The notes beneath the pieces were generated by a model, which worked only from the letters and a program-made list of their open reading frames with translations, had not been told where the DNA came from and did not search any database. Position numbers and translations under genes: made by a program. This document shows, piece after piece, positions 4,663-28,052 of a stretch of DNA of 28,265 bases. The stretch comes from an uncultured Candidatus Saccharibacteria bacterium (GTDB lineage Bacteria > Patescibacteriota > Minisyncoccia > Sungbacterales > HO2-52-23): contig CAZYED010000001.1 in assembly GCA_964646295.1 (NCBI GenBank), positions 22,527 through 50,791 of the forward strand. Reading direction: 5' to 3'. Each line of letters opens with the position of its first letter. Position 1 is the first letter of the stretch.

Positions 4663-6018
4663 ATGGAGAAAGCATCAGAACAAAACTTCGTATCAATGGA
4701 AAAGATCGTGAGCTTGGCCAAGCGGCGCGGCTTTGTCTTTCCCGCGTCCGAGATATATGGCGGGCTTGCTGGTACATGGGACTATGGGCCTTTGGGCGTG
4801 GAGCTCAAAAACAACATCAAAGAAATGTGGTGGCGGAGATTTGTGCGTGCCCGCGACGACATGGTGGGGATTGATACTGCAATCGTGATGAATCCGAAAG
4901 TATGGGAAGTATCGGGCCACGTCGGCGAATTTACCGATCCTCTGGTAGAGTGCAAAAAATGCCATCAGCGTTTTCGCGCCGATCAGACGGACGAATGGAC
5001 GGGACATTACGCGCGGGAGCATGGCCGGGCGGCAGAGGACGCGGATTTTTCCGAAGCGCGGAATTTCAATCTTCTGTTTCGCACATTTGTCGGCCCGGTG
5101 GAGGATTCCGCAAGCCAGACATACTTGCGTCCCGAAACTGCGCAGGGGATGTTTGTGAATTTCAAAAATATCACGGATACCATGCGCCATACTCTGCCTT
5201 TTGGTATCGCGCAGATCGGCAAGGCATTTCGCAACGAAATCACTCCGCGCGACTTCATCTTCCGCTCCCGCGAATTTGAGCAGATGGAAATAGAGTATTT
5301 TGTCCGCGAGGCGTCATGGGAGGATCACTTCGCGCACTGGCTCAACGAAATGCGCGCGTGGATCAGCGATATGGGTATCAGTATGGAGCGCGTGCATGAG
5401 CTTGAAGTGCCGGACGGGGAGCGCGCGCACTACTCAAAGCGCACGGTTGATTTTGAGTATGATTTTCCGTTTGGTAAAAAAGAACTGTACGGCCTCGCAT
5501 ACCGGGGCGACTTTGATCTCAAAAATCACTTCAAAGAGCCGCCGTATCGCGAGGAGGGCGAGGAGCCGTTTTATCCGCACGTGATTGAGCCGACATGGGG
5601 CGTGGATCGTACGGTGCTTGCGGTTTTGCTTGAGGCGTATCGTGAGGAAGAAAGCAAGAAAGGAAAGCGCGTATATCTGAAACTGCCGCCACGTCTGGCG
5701 CCCTACAAAGCCGCCGTATTTCCTCTGGTATCAAATCGTCCGCAGATCGTGGAAAAAGCAAATGAGGTGTGCAAGGAGCTCAAAGCGGGGGGGTTCAGTG
5801 TCGCATGGGACGCGCGCGGCAACATCGGCAAGCGTTATTATGCGCAGGATGAGATCGGCACTCCCTACTGTATCACGGTAGATTATCAGACATTGGAAGA
5901 CGGTACCGTGACAGTGCGCGATCGCGACACGGCAAAACAGGAACGCATAGCCGTGTCGGAATTGGCAAGGTTTTTAGCAGAAAAAACAAAGGGATCAATC
6001 TCAAACGCCACGCAATAG
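4663..6018 (+). CDS. glyQS: Glycyl-tRNA synthetase, homodimeric class II type
   Basis: KRRGFVFPASEIYGG, WDYGPLG, YLRPETAQG, motif 2 QIGKAFRNEITP, EQMEIEYF, and anticodon domain IGKRYYAQDEIGTPYCITVD. Confidence 0.97.
   Translation: MEKASEQNFVSMEKIVSLAKRRGFVFPASEIYGGLAGTWDYGPLGVELKNNIKEMWWRRFVRARDDMVGIDTAIVMNPKVWEVSGHVGEFTDPLVECKKCHQRFRADQTDEWTGHYAREHGRAAEDADFSEARNFNLLFRTFVGPVEDSASQTYLRPETAQGMFVNFKNITDTMRHTLPFGIAQIGKAFRNEITPRDFIFRSREFEQMEIEYFVREASWEDHFAHWLNEMRAWISDMGISMERVHELEVPDGERAHYSKRTVDFEYDFPFGKKELYGLAYRGDFDLKNHFKEPPYREEGEEPFYPHVIEPTWGVDRTVLAVLLEAYREEESKKGKRVYLKLPPRLAPYKAAVFPLVSNRPQIVEKANEVCKELKAGGFSVAWDARGNIGKRYYAQDEIGTPYCITVDYQTLEDGTVTVRDRDTAKQERIAVSELARFLAEKTKGSISNATQ
5917..5942 (+). 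repeat. 26-bp direct repeat, left copy (inside glyQS 3' end); right copy at 10842-10867
   Basis: CGCGATCGCGACACGGCAAAACAGGA is identical at both positions and begins with the 10-bp palindrome CGCGATCGCG. Confidence 0.92.
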
Positions 6019-6087
6019 CCGTGCAGATTTGGATTTATCCATCATCGTGTTGCCAACTTTCTGGAAATGTTGGTCTTTATGCGTCTC

Positions 6088-6116
6088 TTGCGCTCAATAT
6101 CCTTTTGCGCTACATT
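6088..6116 (+). promoter_or_regulatory. Predicted sigma70 promoter in the CRISPR leader
   Basis: TTGCGC(6088-6093)-17 bp-TACATT(6111-6116), 31 bp before repeat 1. Confidence 0.6.
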
Positions 6117-6147
6117 CCCAAAAGCTCTTTGATAGGCCCAAGGCGCT

Positions 6148-7728
6148 GTCTAAGAGTTACCCTATGAGAGGGAGTGTGTAAACGGGCGTAAACGGGCTTT
6201 GGGTCGTTACCCATCTGCGTCTAAGAGTTACCCTATGAGAGGGAGTTGCAAACTTCTGATGCTGGCAGTGATCCATCGCGGGTCTAAGAGCTACTCTCTG
6301 AGAGGAAGTGTGTAAACGTGCGTTGGCTTCCCTAATCTTATTCTTCTAAGAGCTACCCCATGAGAGGATGTGTTGAAACCATTATTGGCCTCCATGTGAG
6401 ATGTGTCAAAGAGTTCCTCATGAGAGGAGGTGTTGAAACGGCTTTTCTCCATCCTGCTAATACAGGTCAAAGGGCCACCTCATGAGAGGGAGTATGCAAA
6501 CGTGTGGTTTCTTTTTCTTGACAATTGTCTAAGAGTTGCCCCATGAGAGGGAGCATGCAAACAGGTGGTCCGTCTCAATCAGCATGGAATCTAAGAGCTA
6601 CTCCATGAGAGGGAGTATGTAAACAGGAGATTCTTCAAGCCGTCGAGGGGTCTAAGGACTACCTTATGAGAGGGAGTACGTAAACGAGCAGTCGGGTTTT
6701 GGCAGATTGAGTCAAAGATGAGAGGGAGCATGTAAACACGCTCTCAAAAAACTTGATGCCGTATCTAAGAACTACCCCATGAGAGGAAGTGTGTAAACTT
6801 GTAAACGCTTCCGTGCCACACATGTCCAGGAGTTACCCTGTGAGAGGGAGCATCTAAACCCAACAGCCGTAATGAGTAGCCCCGTCTAAGAGCCACCTTG
6901 TGAGAGGGAGCGTGTAAACCAACACACTTTTACCACGGAGGCTATGTCTAAGGACTACCTCATGAGAGGGGGCATGCAAACGCGGGATGTTCTCGTGGGT
7001 CGCCTTGGTCTAAGAGTCATCCCATGAGAGGAAGTGTGTAAACGCGTATCGGTGTGCTCGATTGAGAAGTCCAAGAGTTACCCCATGAGAGGGAGCATGG
7101 AAACGACCGAGCCTTCGACTTCCCACGCGAGTCTAAGAGCTACCCCATGGGAGGGAGCGTATAAACAATAACTTGTGTATCATTCGTGTAGAGTTAAAGA
7201 GCCACCTCATGAGAGGAAGTGTGTAAACAGGAGCGCACCGTACCAAAACAATTACGTCTAAGAACTACCCAATGAGAGGATGTATTGAAACCGGACAACG
7301 TCAGCATGCTCTTGAGATCAAAAAGTTGCCATATGAGGGGGAGCGTGTAAACGCCTAAAAACAGAAGGCGACCAAATTGTCTAAGTCTAAGAGTTCCCCT
7401 ATGGGAGGGAGCATGTAAACAAGTCCTCTGATCGTCCGCCATCCCATGTCTAAGAGTCACCCCATGAGAGGGGCATGTAAACCGTCGTCCGAGTCGCAAC
7501 GAGTTTGCAGTCTAAGCGCTACCCTATGAGAGGAAGTGTGTAAACTATAACGTCCTCTGCAAGGTGTCTGGTCTAAGAGTCATCCCATGAGAGGGAGCAT
7601 GTAAACATAGCCCTGACAGGAGAGAGTTACCAGTCTAAGGATTACCTCATGAGAGGGAGAATTGAAACGACGGCAATGGGTGGGGTCCTCAGAGTCTAAG
7701 AGTCACCAATGAGAGGAGGTATTGAAAC
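6148..7728 (+). CRISPR. CRISPR array: 26 degenerate ~36-bp repeats and 25 spacers (24-28 bp, one of 35 bp)
   Basis: Approximate consensus GTCTAAGAGYTACCYCATGAGAGGRAGYRTGTAAAC with a ~61-62 bp period. Repeat starts: 6148, 6219, 6282, 6344, 6405, 6466, 6527, 6589, 6650, 6711, 6763, 6824, 6884, 6946, 7008, 7069, 7131, 7193, 7256, 7317, 7385, 7448, 7510, 7571, 7633, 7694. All end in AAAC. Confidence 0.96.
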
Positions 7729-7756
7729 CTGGCTTACCATGAAGAGTAGCCAACAT

Positions 7757-7916
7757 TAAATTTTTTGAGCCCTGTCTCCGCGAGGAAGACAGGGCTCTTT
7801 TCATGAGAGGAAGCTTTTATACCCGACCGGTAATCCGGTCGGGGGATTGGCCGTTGAAACGATTTTAAAGCGGCCAATGGGCTTCTCTGTACGATACTAC
7901 CTATACAAGGAGCTTG
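7757..7916 (-). ncRNA. Predicted tracrRNA (boundaries approximate)
   Basis: Lies downstream of a canonical promoter. Contains stems at 7846-7878 and 7822-7843 (9-bp perfect), an anti-repeat at 7802-7822 complementary to the repeat 3' half, and the 7767-7797 hairpin. Confidence 0.72.
7767..7801 (+). terminator. Intrinsic terminator-like hairpin downstream of the array
   Basis: Perfect 11-bp stem GAGCCCTGTCT/AGACAGGGCTC (7767-7797) followed by TTTT on the + strand. Confidence 0.6.
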
Positions 7917-7922
7917 GGGAAA

Positions 7923-7951
7923 AAGATAGCTCAATCACGTTATCTTGTCAA
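7923..7951 (-). promoter_or_regulatory. Predicted sigma70 promoter for the tracrRNA
   Basis: Minus strand TTGACA(7951-7946)-17 bp-TATCTT(7928-7923). The -35 box lies in the last codons of the cas gene. Confidence 0.7.
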
Positions 7952-10513
7952 GGGGTTGGGAGCATCGGTATCCGGCGTGCGCCTGATCAAAGATATGGCG
8001 CGCCACGCCAGATTGATCGCGGCCAGCACGTCGGACTGTCCGTTGAATCCGCATCGGTGGCAAAAAAACTGCCCCCATTGCGGTTGCGGCTCAAGCGCAA
8101 GCCCGAGCAGTTGTCTGCTCTTGTGATCGTCCCCTTGCCGGATCGCTCGCTCAAGGTCTTCCAATGTCCCCCGCACGACGCGATGATAACGCGGAGTCAG
8201 CCGGACCCACTCCCTGCTAAGCGTAAAAAGTTCCCCGAAATCCACAGTGCCTGCATCGCAATCCACGTTGTCAAACCCCGTTGCGGCCGCGTCATCCACG
8301 ATATCGGGAATGACTACCATGGTATCGCGGTGTCCGGGATTTTTCGGTCGTCTCGCAAGCCAGGCGGTTCCGCACTGTGTGCAGGTGCGGGAGATGCCGC
8401 CCGGATAAATTTCCATCAGACCTCCCCATGGGTTGTCTTTTTTGTCAATGCGGACCGCGCCGGCAAAACTCAACGCGTCCACAAAGCCCGTTTTGTTGGC
8501 AAGATAGGTCTTTTTGGAAATAATCTTTTGCTCCCTGCCATGGAACCGGTCATCCAGCCGTTCTATCGCGAGGATACCTTTCCAAAATGCGACCAGTGAA
8601 TGGATCTTTGCCCGGGCGCTTCCCAAAACCGTATCCTGCAGGTGTCGGACCTTTTGGCGTAAATCGCGGGGCGGGGTTTGTTCGCGGGATTGGTACTCGC
8701 TGATCCGGCGTCTGGTCTCTATCAACCGGTCTATGTACTCCTTTTTGCCGAGAATACCCTCCTCAAGCACCCGGCCATCCTCTACAGACACCACGGCATA
8801 GGCAAGCGGATTGACCTCGCCGCGGTTTATCCCGATGACGGTGCGGGCGCGGGAATGCACATCGGAGGAGAAATCCAGATACCCCACCGGCGGAGGTCCG
8901 CTGATGACCATATGGAAGAATAACGTCCACTGGTCTTGGGGATTTCTTTTTTTCCCCACCAGCTTGGCGTTGGAGGCGAATACGCGCGGATTATCCGACA
9001 AGAGGCCCCACGTTTTATTGGTGAGCATCTTGCGCGCCTGCGATCTGCCGAAATAAAGGCGGAGTTTCAGCGCTACACCGGATGCGGGGTACTCGTCAAA
9101 AGATCCGGGTACCCATGTGATCTCTTTGTCCGGATTGTCTTTGCCTCGTCTGCCGCCGGTCGGTCTCATATAGATCAAATCTCCTCCTTTTTCTCTGATA
9201 GAGAATGCGGCGGGTGATGGGGAAAGACAGATATATAACTCCAGGGCATCGGCCGGAGTGTCGGCGTCTTTGGCAAGCGCCATGCCGTATTGAGGCGCGG
9301 GATTGGTCCGGTTGCTCGCCCACGAAAATCCTTCAAACGGGGCCGATATTGTCTCGGCTCGCACTCTTCTGCTTGCCGCATTGCTCCGGAGGAACTGGAT
9401 CTCGGTCCACCGGTCAGGATGCGCAAGCGTCGCGCGAAAGGAAAGGATATCCATGTATCTTGCCCTGATCTGGCTGTCAAAGGGCGCGCGGGCAAATCCT
9501 TGACGGCGCTTTTCGCATACCCGATCAATTTCGCCGAGGAAATGTCCGGCGACCGTTGACGGATCTTCTTCGGGGTTCCTCTCCATACGGATAGCACAGT
9601 ACAGAGCGACTCGTTGGGGCAGTGGCACGGCGCTTCCGAGTTTCCGGCGCACAGCCTTGTGCCTCACGCGATGGATATAGCCGAGGGTTTCGGCGGTGTG
9701 TGGTCTGACCTTTGCCATATCTTCCAGTTGCCGGATGATTACCATGGTATCCGGCGGCGTCCCGCGCTCGGCAATGGGAAATTTCGGAAGGTCGTTGATC
9801 CGCCCATTGAAAAATCGGAGGCGGGGCGACTCCCCGGTTTCTTCCGGCTCGTCCGCTTTCGCAAGGGCTGGAAGCATCTGATTGAGCGCGTAATTGTACG
9901 CGCCTTTCAGCACGTTTGTCTCTGCAATGAGCGCCCGGAATGCGCAAAGCGCGCCAAAATCCGCCGTCACCGCATCATACTCGGGCGCCAGACAGGTGGT
10001 GAGGCGGGTACGCAGGGCGTTGACAATGTCGGCCCAATCCATGTCCGCCGCATCCCGGAGTAACGCCTCATTGGCCTCCAAACACTCGGCGTATTCCCGC
10101 ATTTTCTTCCGGCCTTCCTCAAAAAGCCGTCGGTGGTTGGTGTGGAATGCGGCCATTGCGCCTTCGGCCTCGTGTCGCATTGCCGTAAAAACGGCAGATG
10201 TCATGATCGCGGGGTCAATATCGCGAAGGCCGTCAAGCACGGGCCTGCCTTTAAAAAATGTCTCGTATGAGAATTTTTCTTTCAGGTAGGCAAGGGGATT
10301 TTCTTGGAAATGCGCATAGAGCATTCCATAGAGTCTCTCACGCGCGGCCTCTGTCGCGGCAAACCATCGCTCTATGATGGCGTATTGCCTCTTTGTCGGT
10401 TTTATGCCAAAAGAGAATACGCGCGTGACTTGTCCGGGGATGACCCCGAAGTGATCGCTAATACGAGTCGTGTTGACCAAGGATTTGGTACTGGGCTTAT
10501 GCGCGTCGTCCAC
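7940..10513 (-). CDS. cas12: Type V CRISPR effector, CasX/Cas12e-like (857 aa), with RuvC-I Asp replaced by Asn; predicted nuclease-impaired
   Basis: TnpB-like N-terminus (RVFSFGIKPTKRQ), RuvC-I VIGINRGEVNP, RuvC-II ILAIERL (E651), split Zn ribbon CTQC (711-714) and CHRC (818-821), RuvC-III QSDVLAAINLA (D828). GTG start with SD AAGGAG; adjacent to the array. From memory it closely resembles the Ca. Sungbacteria 'CasX3' sequence in CasX patent filings (not verified). Confidence 0.9.
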   Translation of the reverse strand: MDDAHKPSTKSLVNTTRISDHFGVIPGQVTRVFSFGIKPTKRQYAIIERWFAATEAARERLYGMLYAHFQENPLAYLKEKFSYETFFKGRPVLDGLRDIDPAIMTSAVFTAMRHEAEGAMAAFHTNHRRLFEEGRKKMREYAECLEANEALLRDAADMDWADIVNALRTRLTTCLAPEYDAVTADFGALCAFRALIAETNVLKGAYNYALNQMLPALAKADEPEETGESPRLRFFNGRINDLPKFPIAERGTPPDTMVIIRQLEDMAKVRPHTAETLGYIHRVRHKAVRRKLGSAVPLPQRVALYCAIRMERNPEEDPSTVAGHFLGEIDRVCEKRRQGFARAPFDSQIRARYMDILSFRATLAHPDRWTEIQFLRSNAASRRVRAETISAPFEGFSWASNRTNPAPQYGMALAKDADTPADALELYICLSPSPAAFSIREKGGDLIYMRPTGGRRGKDNPDKEITWVPGSFDEYPASGVALKLRLYFGRSQARKMLTNKTWGLLSDNPRVFASNAKLVGKKRNPQDQWTLFFHMVISGPPPVGYLDFSSDVHSRARTVIGINRGEVNPLAYAVVSVEDGRVLEEGILGKKEYIDRLIETRRRISEYQSREQTPPRDLRQKVRHLQDTVLGSARAKIHSLVAFWKGILAIERLDDRFHGREQKIISKKTYLANKTGFVDALSFAGAVRIDKKDNPWGGLMEIYPGGISRTCTQCGTAWLARRPKNPGHRDTMVVIPDIVDDAAATGFDNVDCDAGTVDFGELFTLSREWVRLTPRYHRVVRGTLEDLERAIRQGDDHKSRQLLGLALEPQPQWGQFFCHRCGFNGQSDVLAAINLAWRAISLIRRTPDTDAPNPLTR

Positions 10514-10716
10514 GATGTGTCTCCTTTCAAGGAGATGATATAAATTGTCAGAGAACAGCTTACTTCGGACGCATGAGATTCAAAACGTCTGATTCAGAGA
10601 TTTGTGCCACAGAAAATGATATTGTGCAAGCCCTTCGCCGCATGCTATTCTTTTAGTGTACGACCTGCGTTTTTTCTGACAGACGCGATTTCTTTCAACT
10701 TATTGCGGTGAGTAAA

Positions 10717-10814
10717 GAGAGAAGTGTGAGCTTGCTTACGCTTCTCTCGAGCGACGACGCATCACCTGCTTATCGGTAGGCAGGAAGAGTCAATACCCCG
10801 CGGCTTGCCGCGGG
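10717..10814. repeat. Cluster of three palindromic hairpins upstream of cas12
   Basis: 10717-10748 (15-bp stem with two G-T pairs, GCTTGC apex), 10765-10784 (CCTGCTT/AGGCAGG), and 10797-10814 (CCCGCGGC-TT-GCCGCGGG, preceded by GTCAATAC). Confidence 0.7.
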
Positions 10815-10841
10815 TCAGTACGCGCGAAATGCGTTCAACCC

Positions 10842-10928
10842 CGCGATCGCGACACGGCAAAACAGGAGCGGATAACGGTGAAAGGGATTAATATGTATAC
10901 ATCGAAAATAAAAACTAAAAGTGATTAA
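10842..10928 (+). pseudogene. Second copy of the glyQS 3' end
   Basis: Reads RDRDTAKQERITVKGINMYTSKIKTKSD*, versus RDRDTAKQERIAVSELARFLAEK in glyQS; no start codon or upstream glyQS sequence. Confidence 0.82.
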
Positions 10929-10940
10929 GAGGAAATAGTT

Positions 10941-11210
10941 ATGACGCCCCTTCTCTATCTCTTGCTTAATATATGCCTAATTCTACTTGCCGTTATACCC
11001 ATAGGTGTGGTCATCCCTGATTATCCTCTTAGTTATTTTGTAACGTATAAAGGCCCATGGTTCTATATACGTATTGGCAATAGACTTGTTGTTGGAAATA
11101 TGAGACGAAGACACGATCTGCCTCCATTTAACTATAAACGTCGTATAATCTATTCTCTTATAACGGCAAATCTAATCTTTCTTATGTTACAATATCTTCC
11201 CTTCTCTTGA
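10941..11210 (+). CDS. Small hypothetical membrane protein (AT-rich)
   Basis: 89-aa ORF with SD GAGG and two hydrophobic segments. Confidence 0.5.
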   Translation: MTPLLYLLLNICLILLAVIPIGVVIPDYPLSYFVTYKGPWFYIRIGNRLVVGNMRRRHDLPPFNYKRRIIYSLITANLIFLMLQYLPFS

Positions 11211-11228
11211 AGAGTAATGTCAATATAA

Positions 11229-11591
11229 ATGAATCAACTTATGAATTTTTTAAAGAATCGAACCTATAGACTCTTAGCCGTAGAGTTGGTTCTTTTGGAT
11301 TTGATCCTATCGGTCTTCGGTTCTTTTTTCGCCCTGGATGGCTCACCGCAATTCATAGTAGATATTATGGGATTTCTCCTTAACATACTTTTCTGGTTCG
11401 GTATACCGGTATTTATCGTGTATCCCCCCATTTACTTAATAAAAAGAATGAGGGCAAAAAAGAATCTTGACAGGGAGGCATTTTATGCGTTGTATGGAGT
11501 ATCAATGCATCAGATATTGACGATCATATTTCTCCTCTTTTTATTGCCAATGTTCATACTGCCAACCCTGAACGTAATCTTATTTTGGTAA
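11229..11591 (+). CDS. Hypothetical membrane protein (AT-rich, about 3 TM)
   Basis: 120-aa hydrophobic ORF whose stop abuts the M16 start. Confidence 0.6.
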   Translation: MNQLMNFLKNRTYRLLAVELVLLDLILSVFGSFFALDGSPQFIVDIMGFLLNILFWFGIPVFIVYPPIYLIKRMRAKKNLDREAFYALYGVSMHQILTIIFLLFLLPMFILPTLNVILFW

Positions 11592-12869
11592 ATGTTTATG
11601 TTTAAAAAAACCACATTAGAAAACGGATTGCGCATTATTACCGCTCCTATGGTCGGGACCAATACCGTGACGGTACTGGTGCTGTGCGGTACGGGATCGG
11701 ATTATGAGGCGCGGGAGATCGGAGGCATCTCGCATTTTTTGGAGCACATGTTTTTCAAGGGCACGAAGAATCGCCCGACGCCGGATCATATCAAGCATGA
11801 GCTTGACGGCATGGGGTCCATCTCCAATGCGTTTACGAGCCATGAAATCACGGGCTATCACATCAAAGCCGCCAAGACCTATCTTGATCAGTCGCTTGAC
11901 CTGCTCGCCGATATCTACAAAAACTCTCTTTTGGCGGAGGAAGAAATCAATCGCGAGCGGCAGGTGATCATAGAGGAGATGCACAAAGACCGCGACACGC
12001 CGACGCTATTTGTCTGGTGGGTGTGGGAGCGGCTCCTGTACGGAGACCAGCCGGCCGGATGGGACGTCATCGGAGAGGAAAAAGTGATCCGCGCGCTCTC
12101 GCGCGATGATTTTGCCAATTACTTCACGCACCAGTATGTCGCGTCCAACACCGCGATCGTGATCGCGGGCAATTTTGACCAGGACGCTACGGTTGCCCGC
12201 GCGCGAGAGCTTTTTGGCGATCTGCGATCGGCTCCGCCCATGCGGACGAAGCCCGCGGTACGCGATATACAAAACGGCATCGGGCTTGACCTTGAGTATA
12301 AGGAGACGGATCAGACGCATATCACGCTCGGATTTCGCGGATATGACGCAAATCACCCCAAGCGCTATATCGCGGAAGTGCTTGCGGCCCTGCTCGGAGG
12401 ATCGTGGAGTGCCCGTATGTGGGATCGCATACGCGACAAGCTTGGCCTGGCATACACCGTGATGACGGCGCATGAATCGTATTCAAACCGCGGATATCTT
12501 GTGACGTATGCGGGCGTGGATCACGCCAATGTGGAGAAGACGATCCGCGCGGCTCTGGAGGAATATAAACGCATGACCGTGGAGCCGGTTTCGGCGGCCG
12601 AGCTCAAGCGCGTCAAAGACTATATGCGCGGCACGACCCTGATCGGCCTTGAGCAATCCAATGCGGTGGCAAATTTCATCGGGGGAGAGGAGATGCTGAC
12701 GGGCAAGCCCCAGACGATTGATGAGGTGTTTGCGAAGATTGACGCGGTAACGCCAGAAGATATCCTGATGGTATCGCGCGAGCTGATCCGCCCCGAGGCT
12801 CTCAATCTTGCCATGATAGGGCCCGCCCGCGATCGTGCGCCTTTTGAACGCATCTTGAAAGAACTATGA
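11592..12869 (+). CDS. M16 family zinc peptidase (pitrilysin-like)
   Basis: Inverted zinc motif HFLEH in GISHFLEHMFFKGT; NAFTS; IRDKLGLAY. Confidence 0.93.
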   Translation: MFMFKKTTLENGLRIITAPMVGTNTVTVLVLCGTGSDYEAREIGGISHFLEHMFFKGTKNRPTPDHIKHELDGMGSISNAFTSHEITGYHIKAAKTYLDQSLDLLADIYKNSLLAEEEINRERQVIIEEMHKDRDTPTLFVWWVWERLLYGDQPAGWDVIGEEKVIRALSRDDFANYFTHQYVASNTAIVIAGNFDQDATVARARELFGDLRSAPPMRTKPAVRDIQNGIGLDLEYKETDQTHITLGFRGYDANHPKRYIAEVLAALLGGSWSARMWDRIRDKLGLAYTVMTAHESYSNRGYLVTYAGVDHANVEKTIRAALEEYKRMTVEPVSAAELKRVKDYMRGTTLIGLEQSNAVANFIGGEEMLTGKPQTIDEVFAKIDAVTPEDILMVSRELIRPEALNLAMIGPARDRAPFERILKEL

Positions 12870-18389: not shown

Positions 18390-21300
18390 ATGCGTTATCA
18401 TCCTCAAAAAATAGAGAAGAAATGGCAGGCTCGCTGGCTTAAGGAAAAGACATACGAGCCCGATCTCAAGCGGGCAAAAAAGCCTTTTTATAATCTCATG
18501 ATGTTTCCGTATCCCTCCGCGGAGGGGCTTCATGTGGGCAATATGTATGCGTTTACGGGGTCTGACATCTACGGCCGCCTGAAACGGATGCAGGGATACG
18601 ACGTATTTGAGCCCATTGGTTTGGACGGATTCGGGATCCACTCGGAAAACTACGCGATCAAAATCGGCGCGCATCCGATGAAGCAGGCGAAGATCTCCGA
18701 AAAGAATTTTTATCGCCAACTTGCCATGATCGGCAACGGATTTGCGTGGCGCGAGCATCTGGAGACCTATGACCCCGAATACTACAAATGGACGCAGTGG
18801 ATCTTTATCCAAATGTTTAAGCAAGGCCTTGCATATCGCAAGAAGCAGGCGGTCAACTGGTGCCCATCGTGCAAGACGGTACTGGCCGACGAGCAGGTGA
18901 TCGCGGGCAAGTGCGAGCGATGCGGATCCACGGTGATCAAAAAAGAGCTTGAGCAGTGGTTTTTCCGCATCACCAAGTATGCGCCGCATCTTTTGAAAAA
19001 TCTCCAGACGCTTGACTGGTCAGAGCGCGTGAAGATCGCACAGCGCGAATGGATCGGTCGGAGCGACGGAGCCATGATTTCTTTTGAAATCCGTCGCTCC
19101 GCGCGGAATGTCACAGACAGAACGCAGAATATCGCAGAAAATGTTCAGCGTGATTCTGCGTCAAGTCAGCGAGAATCTGCGACGTTGACAACAGTCAACG
19201 TATTTACGACGCGGCCCGATACATTGTTTGGCGCGACGTATCTGGTCGTGGCGCCGGAGCATGTGGTGATCAGGAATCAGGAATCAAGAATCAGGAATTA
19301 TGGAGAGGTCACGAAATATGCGGAGCAAGCGCGGGGCAAGGCGGAAGCGGACAGGATTGCGGAGGGGCGGGAGAAGACAGGGGTTGAGCTGAAAGGTATC
19401 AAAGCGATCAATCCCGCAAACAATGAAGAGATACCGATCTTTGTCGCGGACTATGTGCTCGCAGGATATGGTACGGGTGCCATCATGGCAGTACCCTCAC
19501 ACGACGGGCGCGATCTGGAGTTTGCGCGAAAGTACGGGATTCCCGAGCGCACAGTGATCGTGCGACAGAGCATGAAGTGCGTACTGGTACACGGATGCCC
19601 CGCCAAACCGGAAGATAGGGTGGACGTGACAAAAGCGAGCGACAAGCATTGGATCCCGTGGATGAGGGAGCAGATGCAAAAGAATAAGATTCGGGTATTT
19701 ACGCCCCTTATGCCGGAGCCCTGGAAGCCCGACTATGCGGCATGGAAGAAAGAATTTGAAAAAATACCGGTGGATGAAAATACCGTGGTTGTGGGGCACA
19801 GTTGCGGCGGGGCATTTCTCGTCCGGTGGCTTGGAGAGACGCAGAGGAAAGTGAAGAAGCTGATTTTACTCGCCGGAGCGAAAATTCCGGCGGATGATGC
19901 GAACGAGGTTATACGCAATCTGTATGATTTTGATATTGACCCGCGTATACGCGACAACGTCGGCGAGATCGCCGTCTTGATTTCCGATGACGATGAGGAG
20001 CGACACAGAAAGTCAGCCGTACTGTACGCTGAGGCGCTCCACGGGAGGCTCGTGAAGTTTAAGGGCAAGGGGCATTTCCTTTTCAAGCAGATGGGGACGA
20101 ATGCCCTTCCGGAGCTTTTTGACGAAATTTTGAAGACCGCCGATGCATATACGGAAGGCGGCACGGTGGTAAATTCCGGGACGTTCAATGGCATGGACTG
20201 GCAAATGGCCAAAGGGGAAATTACCAAGTCTGTAAACGGAAAACTTGTAACGACATATCATCTTCGCGATTGGCTTGTATCACGCCAGCGCTACTGGGCG
20301 CCGCCGATTCCGATGATCTTCTGCGATGCATGCGCGGCGGCGAAAAGGGGCGAGCGCGCCGAAATGCCCGGATGGTATACGGCTCCCGCCAAAACCCTGC
20401 CGGTAAAGCTTCCGTTTATCAAAAACTTCCGTCCCACGGGGAGCGATCAGTCGCCGCTTGCGGGTGTGGCGAAGTTTTACCGCGTCCGGTGTCCCGCCTG
20501 CCGCGCGTGGGCGCGGCGCGAGACAGATGTCTCGGATACGTTTTTGGATTCGGCATGGTACTATCTGCGGTATCCCAGTGTCGGCGACAAAAAATACGCA
20601 TGGAATCCCGCTATTACAAAAAAATGGCTTCCGGTGACGCGCTATATGGGAGGTGCGGAGCACTCGGTACTGCATTTGCTCTATGTGCGGTTTTTGGCGA
20701 TGGCCCTGCACGATGCCGGGCTGGTGGATTTTGAAGAGCCGATGCCGACGTTTCGCGCGCACGGCCTCATCATCAAGGATGGCGCCAAGATGTCCAAATC
20801 CAAAGGGAACATCATCAATCCCGATGAATATATCCGCGCCTACGGCGCGGACGCGCTCCGCATGTATCTCATGTTTTTGGCGCCATGGGAGCAGGGGGGG
20901 GATTTCCGCGACGCGGGTATCAAGGGGATCACGCGGTTTTTGGAAAGAGCATGGAAGTTTGCGGATGCCAGACTGCAGACCGCAGATACGTCGCAAGTCT
21001 TAAACCCCGATGTGCAGATGCTGATGCACAAGACCATCAAGAAAGTAGGCGAGGATATAGAAAATCTGCAGTACAATACGGCGATTTCGTCGCTTATGAT
21101 ACTGTTGAATACAATTGAGACATCGTCCGATGCAGTGAGCCTTGAGGATATAAAAGTATTTTTGAAACTGCTCGCGCCTTTTGCTCCTCATATCACCGAG
21201 GATCTCTGGCAACGACATCGTCCTATAACCTACAACCTACAACCTACGATCTTTCGTTCAATTCATCGTGAGCCGTGGCCGGAGTATGATCCGCGTATGA

Positions 21301-21494
21301 TAGTTGAGAAGACGTTTGAGCTCGTGGTGCAGGTGAATGGCAAAATGCGCGGCCGTATCACTCTGCCCGCGGGGGCTGGCGAGGCGCAGGCCGTGGCCGC
21401 GGCGCGCGGGATGGACACCGTGAGACCGTATCTTATTTCCGAGCCGCGCAAAGTGATCTTTGTTCCGGATCGTCTCATCAATTTTGTCACGTAA
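18390..21494 (+). CDS. leuS: Leucyl-tRNA synthetase with an inserted alpha/beta-hydrolase domain
   Basis: MFPYPSAEGLHVGN, FTTRPDT, GTGAIMAVPSHD, DW..SRQRYW, DTFLDSAWY and KMSKS. The insertion spans 19572-20135. Confidence 0.96.
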   Translation: MRYHPQKIEKKWQARWLKEKTYEPDLKRAKKPFYNLMMFPYPSAEGLHVGNMYAFTGSDIYGRLKRMQGYDVFEPIGLDGFGIHSENYAIKIGAHPMKQAKISEKNFYRQLAMIGNGFAWREHLETYDPEYYKWTQWIFIQMFKQGLAYRKKQAVNWCPSCKTVLADEQVIAGKCERCGSTVIKKELEQWFFRITKYAPHLLKNLQTLDWSERVKIAQREWIGRSDGAMISFEIRRSARNVTDRTQNIAENVQRDSASSQRESATLTTVNVFTTRPDTLFGATYLVVAPEHVVIRNQESRIRNYGEVTKYAEQARGKAEADRIAEGREKTGVELKGIKAINPANNEEIPIFVADYVLAGYGTGAIMAVPSHDGRDLEFARKYGIPERTVIVRQSMKCVLVHGCPAKPEDRVDVTKASDKHWIPWMREQMQKNKIRVFTPLMPEPWKPDYAAWKKEFEKIPVDENTVVVGHSCGGAFLVRWLGETQRKVKKLILLAGAKIPADDANEVIRNLYDFDIDPRIRDNVGEIAVLISDDDEERHRKSAVLYAEALHGRLVKFKGKGHFLFKQMGTNALPELFDEILKTADAYTEGGTVVNSGTFNGMDWQMAKGEITKSVNGKLVTTYHLRDWLVSRQRYWAPPIPMIFCDACAAAKRGERAEMPGWYTAPAKTLPVKLPFIKNFRPTGSDQSPLAGVAKFYRVRCPACRAWARRETDVSDTFLDSAWYYLRYPSVGDKKYAWNPAITKKWLPVTRYMGGAEHSVLHLLYVRFLAMALHDAGLVDFEEPMPTFRAHGLIIKDGAKMSKSKGNIINPDEYIRAYGADALRMYLMFLAPWEQGGDFRDAGIKGITRFLERAWKFADARLQTADTSQVLNPDVQMLMHKTIKKVGEDIENLQYNTAISSLMILLNTIETSSDAVSLEDIKVFLKLLAPFAPHITEDLWQRHRPITYNLQPTIFRSIHREPWPEYDPRMIVEKTFELVVQVNGKMRGRITLPAGAGEAQAVAAARGMDTVRPYLISEPRKVIFVPDRLINFVT
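19102..19181. repeat. In-frame palindromic repeat element inside leuS
   Basis: Four CGC(A/G)GA-like units followed by four complementary TC(T/A)GCG units, each at about 10-bp spacing. Confidence 0.65.
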
Positions 21495-23875: not shown

Positions 23876-24711
23876 CTCACGTCTCCGTCATCTCGTATAT
23901 TCCGGCGATCCACAAAGGATATGTGGATTTTTTCAAAAAGTATTTCGCGGGGACGCTCTATATACTCGCAGAGGATCTCGTACGCGAAGTGCCGCGAATG
24001 GAGCGCGATATCAGGGCGGTACAGCCCAAAGAAATAAAAGCGCTTTTGGAAGGACTAAAGATTTTTGAAAAAATCATAGTGCTTGACCGTGCTACTTTGC
24101 CGGAGCTTCAGAGCGATAGCGCGCCTATCGTCATGCCTGATGAAGACGTAAACAGGCATTTTGCTACAGAGTATCTTGCGGACAAAAAAGTGGAATTCGT
24201 ATCCATATTTCTTCGTTGGGACAAGCAGATATCCACCAAAGAAATGGAAGTGCCGCCCGACCGCGTGATCTCGCAGGCAGAAGCGGATAAAGAACTCATG
24301 GGTGCTGCGTTCAAAGAAGCCGAGAAAAGCCCCGACTGGTGGCGGCAAATAGGCGCGCTTGCCGTGCGCGATGGCAAAGTACTCATATTGGCGTACAACA
24401 AGCCCCTACCGTCCAAGGACTACACATTCGGCCCATTCGGCGATCCGCGTGCCAATTTTGACGCGGGCGTGAGTTTTGAGCTTGTCAAGACCATACATGC
24501 CGAAGCCGCAGTCATCAGCGAGGCCGCACGCGGCGGTACATCGCTTGATGGAGCTACCCTCTACGTCACCACATTCCCATGCCCGGTATGTGCCAAATCC
24601 ATAGCCGCCGCAGGCATCAAAAAGCTCTTCTACTCCAAAGGATACTCCCTCTTAGACGCCGAAGATGTGCTGAAAGCATATGGCGTTGAGATCGTGATGG
24701 TTCGAAACTGA
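23872..24711 (+). CDS. dCMP-type deaminase with an N-terminal extension
   Basis: IHAE and FPCPVC zinc motifs in the C-terminal half. Confidence 0.87.
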   Translation: MTHVSVISYIPAIHKGYVDFFKKYFAGTLYILAEDLVREVPRMERDIRAVQPKEIKALLEGLKIFEKIIVLDRATLPELQSDSAPIVMPDEDVNRHFATEYLADKKVEFVSIFLRWDKQISTKEMEVPPDRVISQAEADKELMGAAFKEAEKSPDWWRQIGALAVRDGKVLILAYNKPLPSKDYTFGPFGDPRANFDAGVSFELVKTIHAEAAVISEAARGGTSLDGATLYVTTFPCPVCAKSIAAAGIKKLFYSKGYSLLDAEDVLKAYGVEIVMVRN

Positions 24712-24838
24712 CTATATTTGGTTCGAAGGCAGGGAGCCATTTAGGCGGCTTTCCTCGTGAAAAATCTTCCATCTTAAATGTTAAATGAAGCATTAGCTAC
24801 ATGTTAATTGTTAAAAGTTAAGATGTCTTTGAAAACCC

Positions 24839-24867
24839 TTGACTTATGCCATTTTCTGCGCTAACAT
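24839..24867 (+). promoter_or_regulatory. Predicted sigma70 promoter of the Fic gene
   Basis: TTGACT-17 bp-TAACAT, with nearby repeated ATGTTAA-like heptamers. Confidence 0.55.
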
Positions 24868-24908
24868 GTTAAGTATTGAGTTCAAGCAATGTAAATAAGA
24901 CTAAGTAT

Positions 24909-26075
24909 ATGGGTATACCCCTTAAGCTTTATGATCCCAAATGGGATAGTAAGCTTGCGAAGACTATTATTGAACTGGAAAAACTTAGAATCAAAAAGCT
25001 TGAGGGTCCAGTTCCTCCGTATATATTCTTTCAATTGAAAGATATTTTCCAGATGTTCGAAAGTCTAGGATCTGCACGAATTGAAGGAAACCGTACAACA
25101 CTATCCGAATTCGTTGAGAGAATAATTGAGAATCCCTCTAAAGATGCAAAGGACGAGAGGATGCAGGAAATTTTCAATATAGAAAGGGCCATTGAGTTCA
25201 TTGAGAAAAATATTAAGAAAACCACCCAATTTGATAGAGCTCTCATTTCAGAGATTCATAGGATCATTGTAGAAGGGCTTACTCCGCCTCCTACTGGTGA
25301 AGGATCAAGATACCCTGGAGAGTTTAGGCCGATTAACGTTTCAATCCAGCATTCAGGACACGTTCCGCCGGATCATATAAAAGTACCCGAGTACGTCGAG
25401 GAACTATTGAGTTTTGTAAATAAGTCTATCGATACCCAGTATCATCTGTTAGCCATCGCGTTGTCTCATCATCGTATGGCGTGGATCCATCCGTTTGATA
25501 ACGGCAACGGTAGAATGGTGCGGATGTTTACGTATGCACTTTTAATTAAGCAGGGCTTTCAGGTCAAAACCGGAAGGATATTGAATCCAACGGCCATATT
25601 CTGCATGGATCGGAATAAGTATTATGATATGCTTTCTCTTGCTGATTCGGGTAATGAGGATAAGGTGCTTGAATGGTGCCTCTATGTTCTTGAGGGACTA
25701 CGTTCCGAGATAGAAAAGATCGATAGGTTGCTTGATTTGGGATATACCGTTAATACGGTCTTACTTCCGATGCTTTCCTATGCCTTTGAACGTAAACATA
25801 TCACGAAGCGTGAACATGATATCCTTGCCGCAATTGTGAAGGGTAGAGACATGAGTACGAGATCTGCTAATTTGAAATCAGCGATAGGTAGCGAATCTCC
25901 CGTCCAAAAGTCACGGATACTCAAGAGATTAAGAGACAAACGGATGCTTATTCCACTTAAGGAAAAAGGCAGAGTTTATACGATAGGGTTTGCTAATAAT
26001 TATCTATTGCGAGGTATCGCGCATGTTTTGGAGCAAAATGGATTTGTGCCAGCATCTTTAAATAAGAGGAGCTAA
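24909..26075 (+). CDS. Fic family protein with N-terminal inhibitory motif and C-terminal winged helix
   Basis: HPFDNGNGRMVR Fic motif and SARIEG (S/T)xxxE(G/N) inhibitory motif; AT-rich. ATG 24909 is preferred over TTG 24876. Confidence 0.9.
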   Translation: MGIPLKLYDPKWDSKLAKTIIELEKLRIKKLEGPVPPYIFFQLKDIFQMFESLGSARIEGNRTTLSEFVERIIENPSKDAKDERMQEIFNIERAIEFIEKNIKKTTQFDRALISEIHRIIVEGLTPPPTGEGSRYPGEFRPINVSIQHSGHVPPDHIKVPEYVEELLSFVNKSIDTQYHLLAIALSHHRMAWIHPFDNGNGRMVRMFTYALLIKQGFQVKTGRILNPTAIFCMDRNKYYDMLSLADSGNEDKVLEWCLYVLEGLRSEIEKIDRLLDLGYTVNTVLLPMLSYAFERKHITKREHDILAAIVKGRDMSTRSANLKSAIGSESPVQKSRILKRLRDKRMLIPLKEKGRVYTIGFANNYLLRGIAHVLEQNGFVPASLNKRS

Positions 26076-26089
26076 TATTTTTAAGAACC

Positions 26090-26281
26090 ATGAATTATAT
26101 GGAGAACTGCAAAAAGTGCGGGAGTGGAAATATTATCTTGGTGGAGTATGCGCCGGGATCACCCGAGCGGTACGACGGCATTAGCGAGATCAAATGTAAC
26201 GATTGCGGGGTTCGGATCGGTCGATGGTCAGGTAAAGAACTCGCCGATGGAGAAATTGAAAAACGATACGGAGGCAGATAA
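26090..26281 (+). CDS. Small zinc-ribbon protein
   Basis: CKKC...CNDC in 63 aa. Confidence 0.6.
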   Translation: MNYMENCKKCGSGNIILVEYAPGSPERYDGISEIKCNDCGVRIGRWSGKELADGEIEKRYGGR

Positions 26282-26328
26282 TTCCTTATGAGCGAAACCG
26301 AGATATAGGTGTACATTTTGAACATCTC

Positions 26329-26442
26329 AAATCCATCGCCATCGCAGGCATCAAAAAGCTCTACTACTCAAAAGAATACTCCCTTCTAGACGCCGAAGAC
26401 ATGCTGAAGGTATACGGTGTTAAGATTGCAATAGTGAGATGA
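26329..26442 (+). pseudogene. Second copy of the deaminase 3' end
   Basis: KSIAIAGIKKLYYSKEYSLLDAEDMLKVYGVKIAIVR* versus the copy starting at 24595; 90/111 nt identical over 37 codons. Confidence 0.88.
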
Positions 26443-27215
26443 CGGATATTATGAAAGAAATTCCTAAAACAAGAAAAGATCTCTTAGAATTCTTAATGGC
26501 AGAAGAAGATGATGCAAAAAACCTTCGTGACAAAATCAATAGTGATCTTGGTGAGAAAAGAATTGACATAATAAGGGAGAAGAGAGTGTTCTTTCAAAAT
26601 ATTGCGATTACTTCGGCAACTCTTTTGGGTTTGACAACTGCATTTTCGTCAATAAATCCAGTAGCCATCTCCCGTTACCTACATGTCGGTTTAGGATTTC
26701 TCCTATGGGTAATCTGTATGGTGGTTATGTATATAAGAGATATTTTGGATCGGGACTCAGAGGGATTAGTTTCCTCACAGGATCGTTATATAAGTGTGCT
26801 CCAAGACAAGATGAAAGTTATCGAGCGATATGTTGATATATGTTTACAAGAAGGAGATGATAGTGTTGTGGAGAGTTCACTTCCGGCATATTTTGAAGAA
26901 CTAAAATCACCGTCTTCAGCTCAGGAAATTATAAAACAGAATAAGCAGATAAATCAGGAGCGTGAGTTACGAGTAGAAGGGAAAGCGGAGATGGAATTTT
27001 ATGGAGAATTCATAACTTTCTTCTTTATTTTAGGAGTATTCTTTGTTCTAATTGCGATTATCGGAAAACGGTGGGAGCTGCCCTACTTAATAGTAGCTGT
27101 ATTGGGGATATTCCTCTTTATATTTACAGAGTTTTTATCGCGTCTTTGGAAACATGTTTTTAAGATACTGACTTTTTTGAGAAGAGATATTGGCAAGGTA
27201 AATAAAGGCAAGTAA
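26439..27215 (+). CDS. Hypothetical membrane protein (about 4 TM, AT-rich)
   Basis: 258-aa ORF with two pairs of hydrophobic helices; ATGA overlap with the stop of the duplicated deaminase end. Confidence 0.7.
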   Translation: MTDIMKEIPKTRKDLLEFLMAEEDDAKNLRDKINSDLGEKRIDIIREKRVFFQNIAITSATLLGLTTAFSSINPVAISRYLHVGLGFLLWVICMVVMYIRDILDRDSEGLVSSQDRYISVLQDKMKVIERYVDICLQEGDDSVVESSLPAYFEELKSPSSAQEIIKQNKQINQERELRVEGKAEMEFYGEFITFFFILGVFFVLIAIIGKRWELPYLIVAVLGIFLFIFTEFLSRLWKHVFKILTFLRRDIGKVNKGK

Positions 27216-27261
27216 GTTCTTATGTGGGATGTCTGAAGTCCAAACTTCAAACATAATTTAA

Positions 27262-27290
27262 ACCAGTCAGGTGCGGGGCGCCTGACTGGT
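27262..27290 (-). terminator. Terminator hairpin between convergent genes
   Basis: 13-bp stem ACCAGTCAGGTGC/GCGCCTGACTGGT, followed by TTT on the minus strand. Confidence 0.6.
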
Positions 27291-27318
27291 GATGGGGTTT
27301 GGGCGGATTCGCGGTGCG

Positions 27319-27759
27319 TTATACCGGAAAGAATTGACCTCGGAGAAATGCCATTTCTGTTACGATTTCTTCCGGAGAAAGATTCTTGAAAAGTGCATCT
27401 TCAAGGCATTGTGCTTCTGTGTACAAGAGATCATTGAGTTTTCGCGGGAGTATGTGCCAGTGGAGGTGATTCACTTTGAGATCGCTCTCACCGAGAAACG
27501 GTCTCCAGTGCTGGCGTACGTCGCATCCCGTGCCGATGCTGAGTTTTACGATTCGCTCCTGAAACATGAGCACGGTATCAAACAGCTCATGACACTCATC
27601 CGGGTCCATCTGTTACGGCTCCTCCACATGGCGCTCCGGAATGGCCAGGAGATGATACGGCACCAGTTGGGGATTGCTCTGCATGACGTAAACCCGTGCT
27701 CCTCTCCACAGTACTCCCTGCCGCTCCTGATCAATGTTGCAAAATGGGCATAAAGACAT
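27319..27759 (-). pseudogene. HIT family hydrolase interrupted by an in-frame TAA
   Basis: MSLCPFC start with SD GGAGG, H.L.IP.RHV, then TAA at 27615-27613, then an in-frame HLHWHILPR histidine triad. Confidence 0.8.
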
Positions 27760-27851
27760 CCCCTGCCTCCAAGAGTATAAGGTTTTGTGCTGGCCGTACA
27801 GTATCAGAAAAGACCGATGGCGTCCATTTTCGCAAGGCGCATGAGTTGCTG

Positions 27852-27880: not shown

Positions 27881-27897
27881 CTTAATACTTGAAAATC

Positions 27898-27990
27898 TAT
27901 GTGGTTATGAAGTGAAGCGGGTGAGAATCCCGCACTGTCGCGCAACGGTGTGTCCCGAGAAGTTCTCGGACAAGTCCGAGCCTTTATATG
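27898..27990 (+). promoter_or_regulatory. Cobalamin riboswitch-like aptamer (compact)
   Basis: GAA-GCGGG-TGAGAAT-CCCGC-ACTGT-CGCGCA-ACGGT core, a short P6-like stem TGTCCCGAGA/TCTCGGACA, and AAGTCCGAGCC matching the B12-box junction. Confidence 0.72.
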
Positions 27991-28052
27991 CGAAGTCGCA
28001 TGACTTCCCACATCGTCCGCGTAAGACAAACGGCTGTTTTCGGCCCCCTCTG

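Follow-up and report, generated by a model that had tools for sequence, protein, structure and literature searches.

How does a CRISPR locus come to lie between two copies of the end of a housekeeping gene, with no integrase encoded beside it? The question is raised by a stretch of 28,265 nucleotides (the window; GenBank assembly GCA_964646295.1, contig CAZYED010000001.1, positions 22,527 to 50,791 of the forward strand) from a member of Candidatus Sungbacteria, a groundwater bacterium of the candidate phyla radiation (CPR). Here an island that holds an array of clustered regularly interspaced short palindromic repeats (CRISPR) and a gene for a Cas12e/CasX homologue (casX) is bracketed by a direct repeat of the 3′ end of glyQS, the gene for glycyl-tRNA synthetase (GlyRS). 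Comparison with related genomes indicates that the repeat is probably a scar, left when two cargos were stacked in a hotspot by short-homology or illegitimate recombination, and not the attachment (att) site pair of a mobile CRISPR island.

The 26 bp at 5917-5942 recur without a difference (26/26) at 10842-10867, and similarity extends at 90% over 39 bp (5917-5955 and 10842-10880), both by reading the sequence and with a repeat finder; the chance expectation for an exact 26-mer repeat in 28 kb is about 1e-7 by our arithmetic. Both copies are in frame, the left one as RDRDTAKQERIAVSELARFLAEKTKGSISNATQ and the right one as RDRDTAKQERITVKGINMYTSKIKTKSD, each followed by a stop, which on the right lies at 10926-10928 (Table 1). 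In the second glyQS 3′ end the identical 26 bp are followed by 13 bp that match at 9 positions, and the remainder is AT-rich and unrelated, encoding the tail ITVKGINMYTSKIKTKSD and a stop. The AGAGGA downstream of it is Shine-Dalgarno-like. A residual similarity beyond the 39 bp, AAAGGGATCAAT against AAAGGGATTAAT, agrees at 11 of 12 positions, but 11-13% of shuffles do equally well and it is taken as chance. The right junction and the DNA behind it recur at 99.9-100% identity in contig JACOZB010000048 of a second assembly, GCA_016181545.1, and the junction is bridged without differences by Logan contigs of two runs, so that it is not an assembly artefact. An earlier note, made on this DNA alone, had reported the exact repeat with its two in-frame GlyRS C-termini and the lack of an encoded recombinase. 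The first point is borne out by the sequence, the repeat finder and the independent assembly; the second holds for the sizeable open reading frames (ORFs) of the window, in none of which domain searches found an integrase, transposase or resolvase domain.

Table 1. Features of the glyQS/M16 interval and its flanks, in window coordinates
Feature	Position	Strand	Details
glyQS (dimeric class II GlyRS, 451 aa)	4663..6018	+	Pfam tRNA-synt_2b and HGTP_anticodon
Left repeat copy	5917..5955	+	inside glyQS; 26 bp exact, 39 bp at 90%; encodes RDRDTAKQERIAV
Resident GlyRS tail	5943..6018	+	native-like (ERIAVSELARFLAEKT...); orthologous to tails of all relatives
Leader	6019..6147	+	glyQS stop to first repeat; 95% identical to sister lineage
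CRISPR-like array	6148..7728	+	26 repeats of ~36 nt, 60-92% alike; 25 spacers of 22-35 nt
Array-to-casX intergenic	7729..7939	.	partial repeat copy (7788-7830), hairpins
Cas12e/CasX homologue, 857 aa	7940..10513	-	NCBIfam NF045604
Genus-specific repeat element, truncated copy	10701..10845	+	last ~14 nt of sister-lineage copy missing
CGCG microhomology	10842..10845	+	novel joint of repeat element and glyQS fragment; alignment of haplotypes A and B and other copies
Second glyQS 3′ end	10842..10928	+	86 nt plus stop; then AGAGGA, next ORF's ATG 12 nt downstream
o89, small hydrophobic ORF	10941..11210	+	low-GC cassette; no family match
o120, small hydrophobic ORF	11229..11591	+	orphan
ATGTTT, 6-nt tandem copy of M16 start codon region	11592..11597	+	right edge of insert; sequence read directly
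M16-family peptidase gene	11598..12869	+	Pfam, synteny; conserved right flank of hotspot

Which of the two tails belongs to the gene can be read from the relatives, for which 62 genomes across the order and metagenome contigs were examined. The genome that holds the window (G000; 864 kb, 92.5% complete, 52.6% GC; haplotype A) has glyQS as its sole GlyRS match, and orthologues were found in 41 of 41 relatives. The consensus QER[IV]xxxELxxYFxxKL is common to all 19 relatives' gene ends that were read; the left tail fits it, the right tail does not, and nucleotide homology to two relatives, G003 and G002, runs through the left tail to ~5990. The tail attached to the gene is therefore the vertically inherited one. 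Its last ~9 codons (KGSISNATQ and stop) are an extension common to the sister lineage. The second glyQS end is absent from all relatives examined, whether the gap behind the gene is occupied or not.

That gap has a history of its own. The gene order DUF11 protein-glyQS-M16 peptidase is kept across the order (18 of the 19 relatives' loci that reach far enough), and the distance from the glyQS stop to the M16 start is 0-100 bp in most genomes. In G003, a member of the same genus, the site is empty: GlyRS ends ...ERIAVGELTSYIEEKTS and stop, 4 bp follow and then comes the M16 ATG, with one copy of the repeat. Other genomes have the gap occupied, by ~880 bp of small ORFs (G002), by 2.5 kb with a 602-aa ORF (G013) or by ~440 bp (G017). 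Because one site is empty and the cargo differs among the others, the glyQS/M16 peptidase interval is a variable hotspot of this Sungbacteria lineage. The three cargos (G002:C125:3812-4699, G013:C5 and G017:C18) are unrelated DNA. Pfam gave no informative family for those of G002 and G013, and a toxin-antitoxin label for the two was for this reason not adopted.

The central comparison is with the sister lineage, haplotype B, represented by G001 (GCA_001820655.1, Candidatus Sungbacteria bacterium RIFCSPHIGHO2_02_FULL, the nearest named relative) and 14 contigs from public metagenome assemblies. B is ~90% identical to A in nucleotides through the whole neighbourhood and holds the same leader, a shorter array and the same casX at the same place, behind a GlyRS tail that ends ...EKRKGSISNATQ and stop. 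Homology between A and each of the B contigs breaks off at 10850 and is taken up again at 11597, B having neither the second glyQS end nor the low-GC segment 10851-11597. Directly upstream of M16, B has 22 nt (AATATCCTTTATTTGCAATACT) where A has 747 nt. Measured against the empty site of G003, the left breakpoint of the island lies in the glyQS stop region (about 5991-6018) and not at 5942/5943, and the ~11 nt that separate the stop region from the M16 ATG are replaced by the island.

These structures bear on the possibility of a site-specific integrative element, in which the 26 bp would be an att core in glyQS, the recombinase would be encoded elsewhere or have been lost, and the copy borne by the element would restore the gene end. 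The direct repeat does flank the island, with a palindrome at its start and two alternative gene ends as its continuations, and G000 has a single tyrosine recombinase, on contig C4 outside the window. Such an origin is nevertheless very unlikely. B (15 contigs) has the island with one copy of the repeat and no attR, the boundary of the insert lies at the stop codon instead of the repeat core, the tail that the element should have brought is the orthologous native one, and no recombinase was found in the window or seen to serve the island. The strict form of the model needs B to be a deletion derivative of A; the intact element at the B junction, described below, excludes this, and with it the strict model. 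The earlier note had taken the repeat for the footprint of a CRISPR island that integrated into the 3′ end of glyQS and restored it. That reading is contradicted by the B island without a second copy, by the native tail beside the gene and by the right end, which is a truncated repeat element. Among the origins that the note had allowed (mobilisation in trans, reduction after integration, or homology-assisted recombination), the last survives as the general mechanism, whereas integration of the att type does not withstand the comparison with B. The empty site that it hoped to see in relatives exists in G003, with the breakpoint in the wrong place for an att core.

Two further elements of that model lose their force on a wider view. 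The junction had been said to start at a palindrome, and both copies do begin with CGCGATCGCG, but this is a frequent word of the 864-kb genome, with 24 copies against about 1 expected; GCGATCGC has 105 copies in G000 against 16 expected. The palindrome is not special to the repeat site, and in glyQS it encodes the conserved RDRD motif. A third word, GCGGCCGC, has 115 copies in G000 against 20 expected; all three are strongly over-represented, reminiscent of HIP1-type iterated palindromes. It had also been asked whether homologous cas12 loci sit at glyQS. The compact CasX homologues found (24-34% identity, about a dozen full-length representatives) stand elsewhere: one comes after efp, with cas4-cas1-cas2 behind it, and another neighbours a ParB-methylase gene. 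CasX loci do not favour glyQS as a site.

The right end of the island, where A and B part, lies inside a repeat element restricted to the genus. Matches to it number 4 in G000, 14 in G001, 5 in G003 and 1 in G002, and none were found in 9 other genera searched; outside the window, copies in G000 lie at C38:2131-2250 and C5:7445-7522. The copies are 79-165 nt long, start TATTGCG, usually right after TTTAT, and have the 3′ terminus ...CCTTTAT in 14 of the 16 with a recognisable 5′ end, the island copy of A being one of the two without it. A hairpin around GCTTGC is conserved, with compensatory differences between copies, and the inner hairpins are variable, closed by AAAGGTT/AACCTTT. The element, which has no Rfam match, looks MITE-like (miniature inverted-repeat transposable element), PATE-like (palindrome-associated transposable element) or like a structured RNA family.

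In B the junction ...CTGCGGTCGCAATATCCTTTATT continues as independent copies of the element do: the island copy runs to ...CAACCCTGCGGTCGCAATATCCTTTATT, followed by 9 nt and the M16 ATG, and the independent copies G001:C46, G001:C22, G003:C53 and G002:C108 end ...CCGCGGTCGTA(A)TACCCTTTAT, a terminus that can also be written ...GCGGTCGTA(A)TACCCTTTAT. In A the element halts at ...CAACCCCGCG and reads on into glyQS sequence, ATCGCGACACGG..., with similarity to the consensus, mismatches included, reaching 10850. CGCG is common to the element consensus (CCCCGCGGTCG) and to glyQS (GTGCGCGATCG) exactly at 10842-10845. On this alignment the A junction is a microhomology joint and not the terminus of the element. 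As the element is intact in B and broken in A, A is the derived state.

The opposite polarity would have the duplication and the cassette ancestral to both haplotypes, with loss of 10851-11597 from B by deletion. The number of events is equal to that of the other histories, and deletions are common in reduced genomes. The deletion, though, would by chance have to produce anew the 13-14 nt (AATATCCTTTATT) with which the element continues in its independent copies. A relic of the cassette was sought in B by local alignment of the 22 B-specific nt with 10851-11597; there is no significant match, 30% of shuffles scoring as high. A 26-bp remnant of that age would also be expected to hold ~2-4 differences, and the probability of none is about 0.03 (our estimate from four-fold divergence). 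A loss from B is thus barely credible as the source of the difference.

What A has in addition is a segment from 10842 or 10846 to 11597, made up of the 86 nt of glyQS 3′ end, o89, o120 and 6 nt of M16 start; its last letters, TAA ATGTTT, abut the resident ATGTTTAAAAAAA of M16. Its GC content is 36-40%, against 52.6% for the genome. A search for relatives of o120 among 5.8 billion proteins returned only the protein itself, metagenome contigs (including JGI) gave none, and the other 61 genomes of the order held nothing at E < 1e-3 (the weakest values, 0.002 and 0.008, are taken as chance). A degenerate pattern for the odd GlyRS tail had no match. From its composition and ends, the cassette looks like the contents of the same hotspot from another strain, carrying a sliver of both flanking genes.

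The age of the island can be gauged from four-fold-site divergence between A and B, which is 0.144 for casX (57/396), 0.195 for glyQS and 0.239 for M16, and ranges over 0.10-0.24 in 15 backbone genes (pooled 503/2654 = 0.19). Since casX falls within the backbone range, the island and the A/B split are of about the same age. In noncoding DNA, island and backbone diverge by 0.04-0.25, a range in which some 'noncoding' stretches are probably coding. The reading preferred here, tentatively and at slightly less than an even chance, is that the common ancestor of A and B had the island without the gene-end duplication.

The CasX array island (about 5991-10850) would then have been resident on the chromosome as the first cargo. 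The second, 10842/10846-11597, would have come from the glyQS/M16 interval of another strain, bringing the 3′ end of another glyQS allele, and would have entered by homology-facilitated illegitimate recombination (HFIR). A RecA-dependent crossover in M16 would have anchored the right side, and the left end would have been joined at CGCG within the island's terminal repeat element, 22 nt past the end of homology, with deletion of those 22 nt of the recipient. The 26-bp repeat would be the match of the imported glyQS fragment to the resident gene at the conserved RDRDTAKQ motif. Donor, anchor in M16 and order of arrival are what we infer here, and that the cassette was the incoming, second cargo is proposed with a confidence that stops just short of evenly balanced.

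HFIR is described from natural transformation of Acinetobacter, S. pneumoniae and P. stutzeri, where the illegitimate joint has 3-10 bp of microhomology and insertion is coupled with a short deletion beside a homologous anchor (PMC3240628). The present locus resembles it in several respects: foreign DNA lies beside a conserved anchor gene, the joint is the short, GC-rich CGCG, the insertion is coupled with a deletion immediately upstream of M16 (22 nt of B replaced by 747 nt), and no recombinase is needed. RecA is also encoded in G000 (457 bits), as is a ComEC/Competence domain (165 bits), a candidate function for DNA uptake. It differs in that the event is inferred by comparative genomics in an uncultivated CPR bacterium and was not observed, the donor and the anchoring crossover included, and in that a piece of the gene across the hotspot came in with the imported DNA, which creates a distant direct repeat.

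Several observations weigh against this order of events. The expected donor haplotype, with glyQS ending ...ERITVKGINMYTSKIKTKSD and stop, then o89-o120-M16 and no island, was found neither in the 62 genomes nor in metagenome contigs. Along M16, A-B mismatch density is a mosaic of 0-13 per 100 bp, without the clear step that would mark a crossover. A neutral 26-bp remnant of A/B age should hold ~2-4 differences by our estimate, so that perfect identity points to a younger event, to a crossover requirement or to motif conservation. With a second-arriving cassette, a perfect match of 26 bp followed by 4 mismatches in 13 bp must rest on motif conservation, estimated at roughly 0.1-0.2. The identity is explained directly if the island was the incoming DNA, and the synonymous divergence of casX, at the low side of the backbone range, leans weakly the same way.

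That alternative, which is rather unlikely, corresponds to the homology-assisted option of the earlier note and is of the C-terminal-displacement type. The backbone would once have had glyQS with the odd tail, o89-o120 and M16, and a fragment from a B-like donor, which began at 5917 in glyQS, took in the native-like tail, the array and casX and ended at the CGCG within the element, would have pushed the old tail and its cargo downstream. RecA crossovers require ~25 identical bases in a run. The 26 identical bp followed by 4 mismatches in 13 bp are accounted for as the crossover segment, and the same structure results as in haplotype A, truncated element included. The fragment could have arrived by either of two routes: (i) as a circle, closed where the imperfect 9-nt direct repeats CGCGATCGC / YGCGGTCGC lie on either side of the B island and captured by a single RecA crossover in the 26-39 bp of glyQS homology, or (ii) as linear DNA that had its anchor in glyQS and was joined illegitimately at CGCG. 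A precedent for the circle exists in E. coli, where re-circularised fragments and a single crossover duplicated the homologous segment (PMC3240628). Campbell-type integration would likewise duplicate a short homologous segment on both sides, with the crossover in the run of perfect identity; unlike in the usual case only 26-39 bp of homology would be available, and the comparison applies to an incoming island alone.

The divergence data are equivocal for an incoming island. With 0.144, casX lies under the pooled backbone value (0.19) yet inside the range of 0.10-0.24, and a later transfer is not demonstrated by it; nor is there a divergence step at 5917-5942. Some 5 kb would have to be imported through 26-39 bp of homology, or else the microhomology joint would have to fall within the homologous anchor, not the typical arrangement in HFIR. 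A backbone with the cassette alone was not found in the 62 genomes or the metagenome contigs. None of the joints listed from Logan contigs is that of a circle (10841 to 5917) or of precise loss (5916 to 10868), at a depth of 3-5x that is too shallow for rare forms. Incoming cassette and incoming island both yield the exact structure of haplotype A without a recombinase, and divergence profiles do not separate them; that the repeat is a scar of short-homology or illegitimate recombination is probable with either.

The stacked arrangement also recalls loci for Rhs, contact-dependent inhibition (CDI) and type VI secretion system (T6SS) effectors, in which C-terminal displacement leaves orphan 3′ ends (Kirchberger 2017, PMC5361080; Jackson 2009, as cited there). 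Rhs and T6SS effector displacement has the order gene, new tail, new cargo, orphan 3′ end and old cargo (PMC5361080), a likeness that favours an incoming island. The glyQS locus has in the same order a conserved gene, its current tail, cargo, an orphan 3′ end (10842-10928) and older or other cargo (o89 and o120), and the arrangement is integrase-free and anchored in the conserved gene. The anchor, unlike a polymorphic toxin gene, is a housekeeping aminoacyl-tRNA synthetase gene, and the place of toxin-immunity pairs is taken by a CasX locus and two orphan ORFs. Where displacement would make the gene-adjacent cargo the younger, the 0.144 of casX stands against 0.10-0.24 for the backbone, in a comparison of two lineages only.

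A displacement architecture recurs at 24595-26442 of the window, which speaks for the incoming island as well. The surrounding interval 24702-27840 is variable: G002 joins the end of a deaminase gene (24701) directly to 27841, and G001 has different DNA at the equivalent place, with only a 38%-identical homologue of a 154-aa ORF. In G000 the interval holds a Fic-domain gene, an orphan deaminase 3′ end (26328-26442, 80% nucleotide identity to the G001 gene end) followed by other cargo, and two unassigned ORFs, stacked in the manner seen at glyQS. G001, with its different cargo, gives no reading of the order of arrival.

Extended to its full reach, the displacement idea would make the 26-bp repeat the mark of integrase-free movement of CasX defence or regulatory islands between Sungbacteria strains, with a circle formed at the 9-nt repeats, RecA capture in the 3′ end of an essential synthetase gene, and displacement of the older tail and cargo. 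This is doubtful. If true, it would, together with the deaminase/Fic case, make gene-end-templated stacking of cargo a general route of island exchange in recombinase-poor CPR genomes.

The array of the island differs in size between strains: A has 26 repeats, contigs of the G001 type have 4 and four ENA contigs have 6. Spacer 12 (6860-6883) is common to A and the sister lineage with a single mismatch, and comparison of the spacers with the cassette and the genome gave nothing past 16-nt chance matches. The casX product matches the NF045604.1 Cas12e/CasX equivalog with 681 bits (cut-off 200) over residues 27-840. Its RuvC-I motif is GINRGE, with Asn in place of Asp, in A and B (six cluster members), where the 18 relatives detected have G[IV]DRGE; the Asn is encoded at 8825-8827 of the window, codon 563 of the casX ORF. 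The RuvC catalytic triad is thereby not intact at RuvC-I, the motif that the comparison covered. The ORF is open in both lineages, with 90% amino acid identity and the four-fold divergence given above, and a rough estimate suggests purifying selection, relaxed relative to the flanks. GINRGE together with an intact ORF fits a predicted nuclease-impaired, binding-type CasX. No ORFs for cas1, cas2 or cas4 lie between glyQS and M16; the cas4-cas1-cas2 adaptation module mentioned above accompanies a homologue of 34% identity.

In some contigs casX appears interrupted. That of GCA_016181545.1 has a 122-bp deletion relative to window 9924-10045, and in two B-type contigs casX is called as two or three ORFs, which may reflect either gene decay in some strains or assembly errors. 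Within the library searched, no paper joins Sungbacteria with CasX or Cas12e. No known RNA family was found by an Rfam scan of 5900-11600. The single Rfam match of the window is a sub-threshold adenosylcobalamin (AdoCbl) riboswitch at 27887-28038 on the plus strand (38.7 bits, where the gathering score is 50, with E 6e-4 and the model covered over its full length). The leucyl-tRNA synthetase (LeuRS) ORF at 18390-21494 has a Ser_hydrolase domain (PF06821; residues 415-575) between the editing domain and the remaining catalytic core.

Islands that encode an integrase and are flanked by att sites in the 3′ ends of tRNA or protein genes offer a further likeness: there too a direct repeat of a gene end brackets accessory DNA and the gene stays intact. 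At glyQS no integrase is present, the repeat is absent from the island-bearing sister, the boundaries are off the repeat and one 'end' is a broken, unrelated repeat element. The event belongs to known kinds, HFIR and the displacement of orphan 3′ gene ends. New are its occurrence in a CPR bacterium, a cargo that consists of a CasX locus with Asn at RuvC-I, and anchors in an aminoacyl-tRNA synthetase gene and a peptidase gene.

One tempting inference, that the CRISPR island is a mobile one whose att sites are present and whose integrase is missing, is thereby removed. In its place stands the picture of a reduced CPR genome, with RecA, ComEC and almost no recombinases, in which accessory DNA would turn over at fixed intervals between housekeeping genes by short-homology and illegitimate recombination, leaving orphan gene ends as scars. 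The CasX locus, with its RuvC-I Asn, its degenerate repeats and no adaptation genes, would predate the split of lineages that differ by ~8-10% in nucleotides and reads open in both. Its age and open frames bear on whether the locus is functional.

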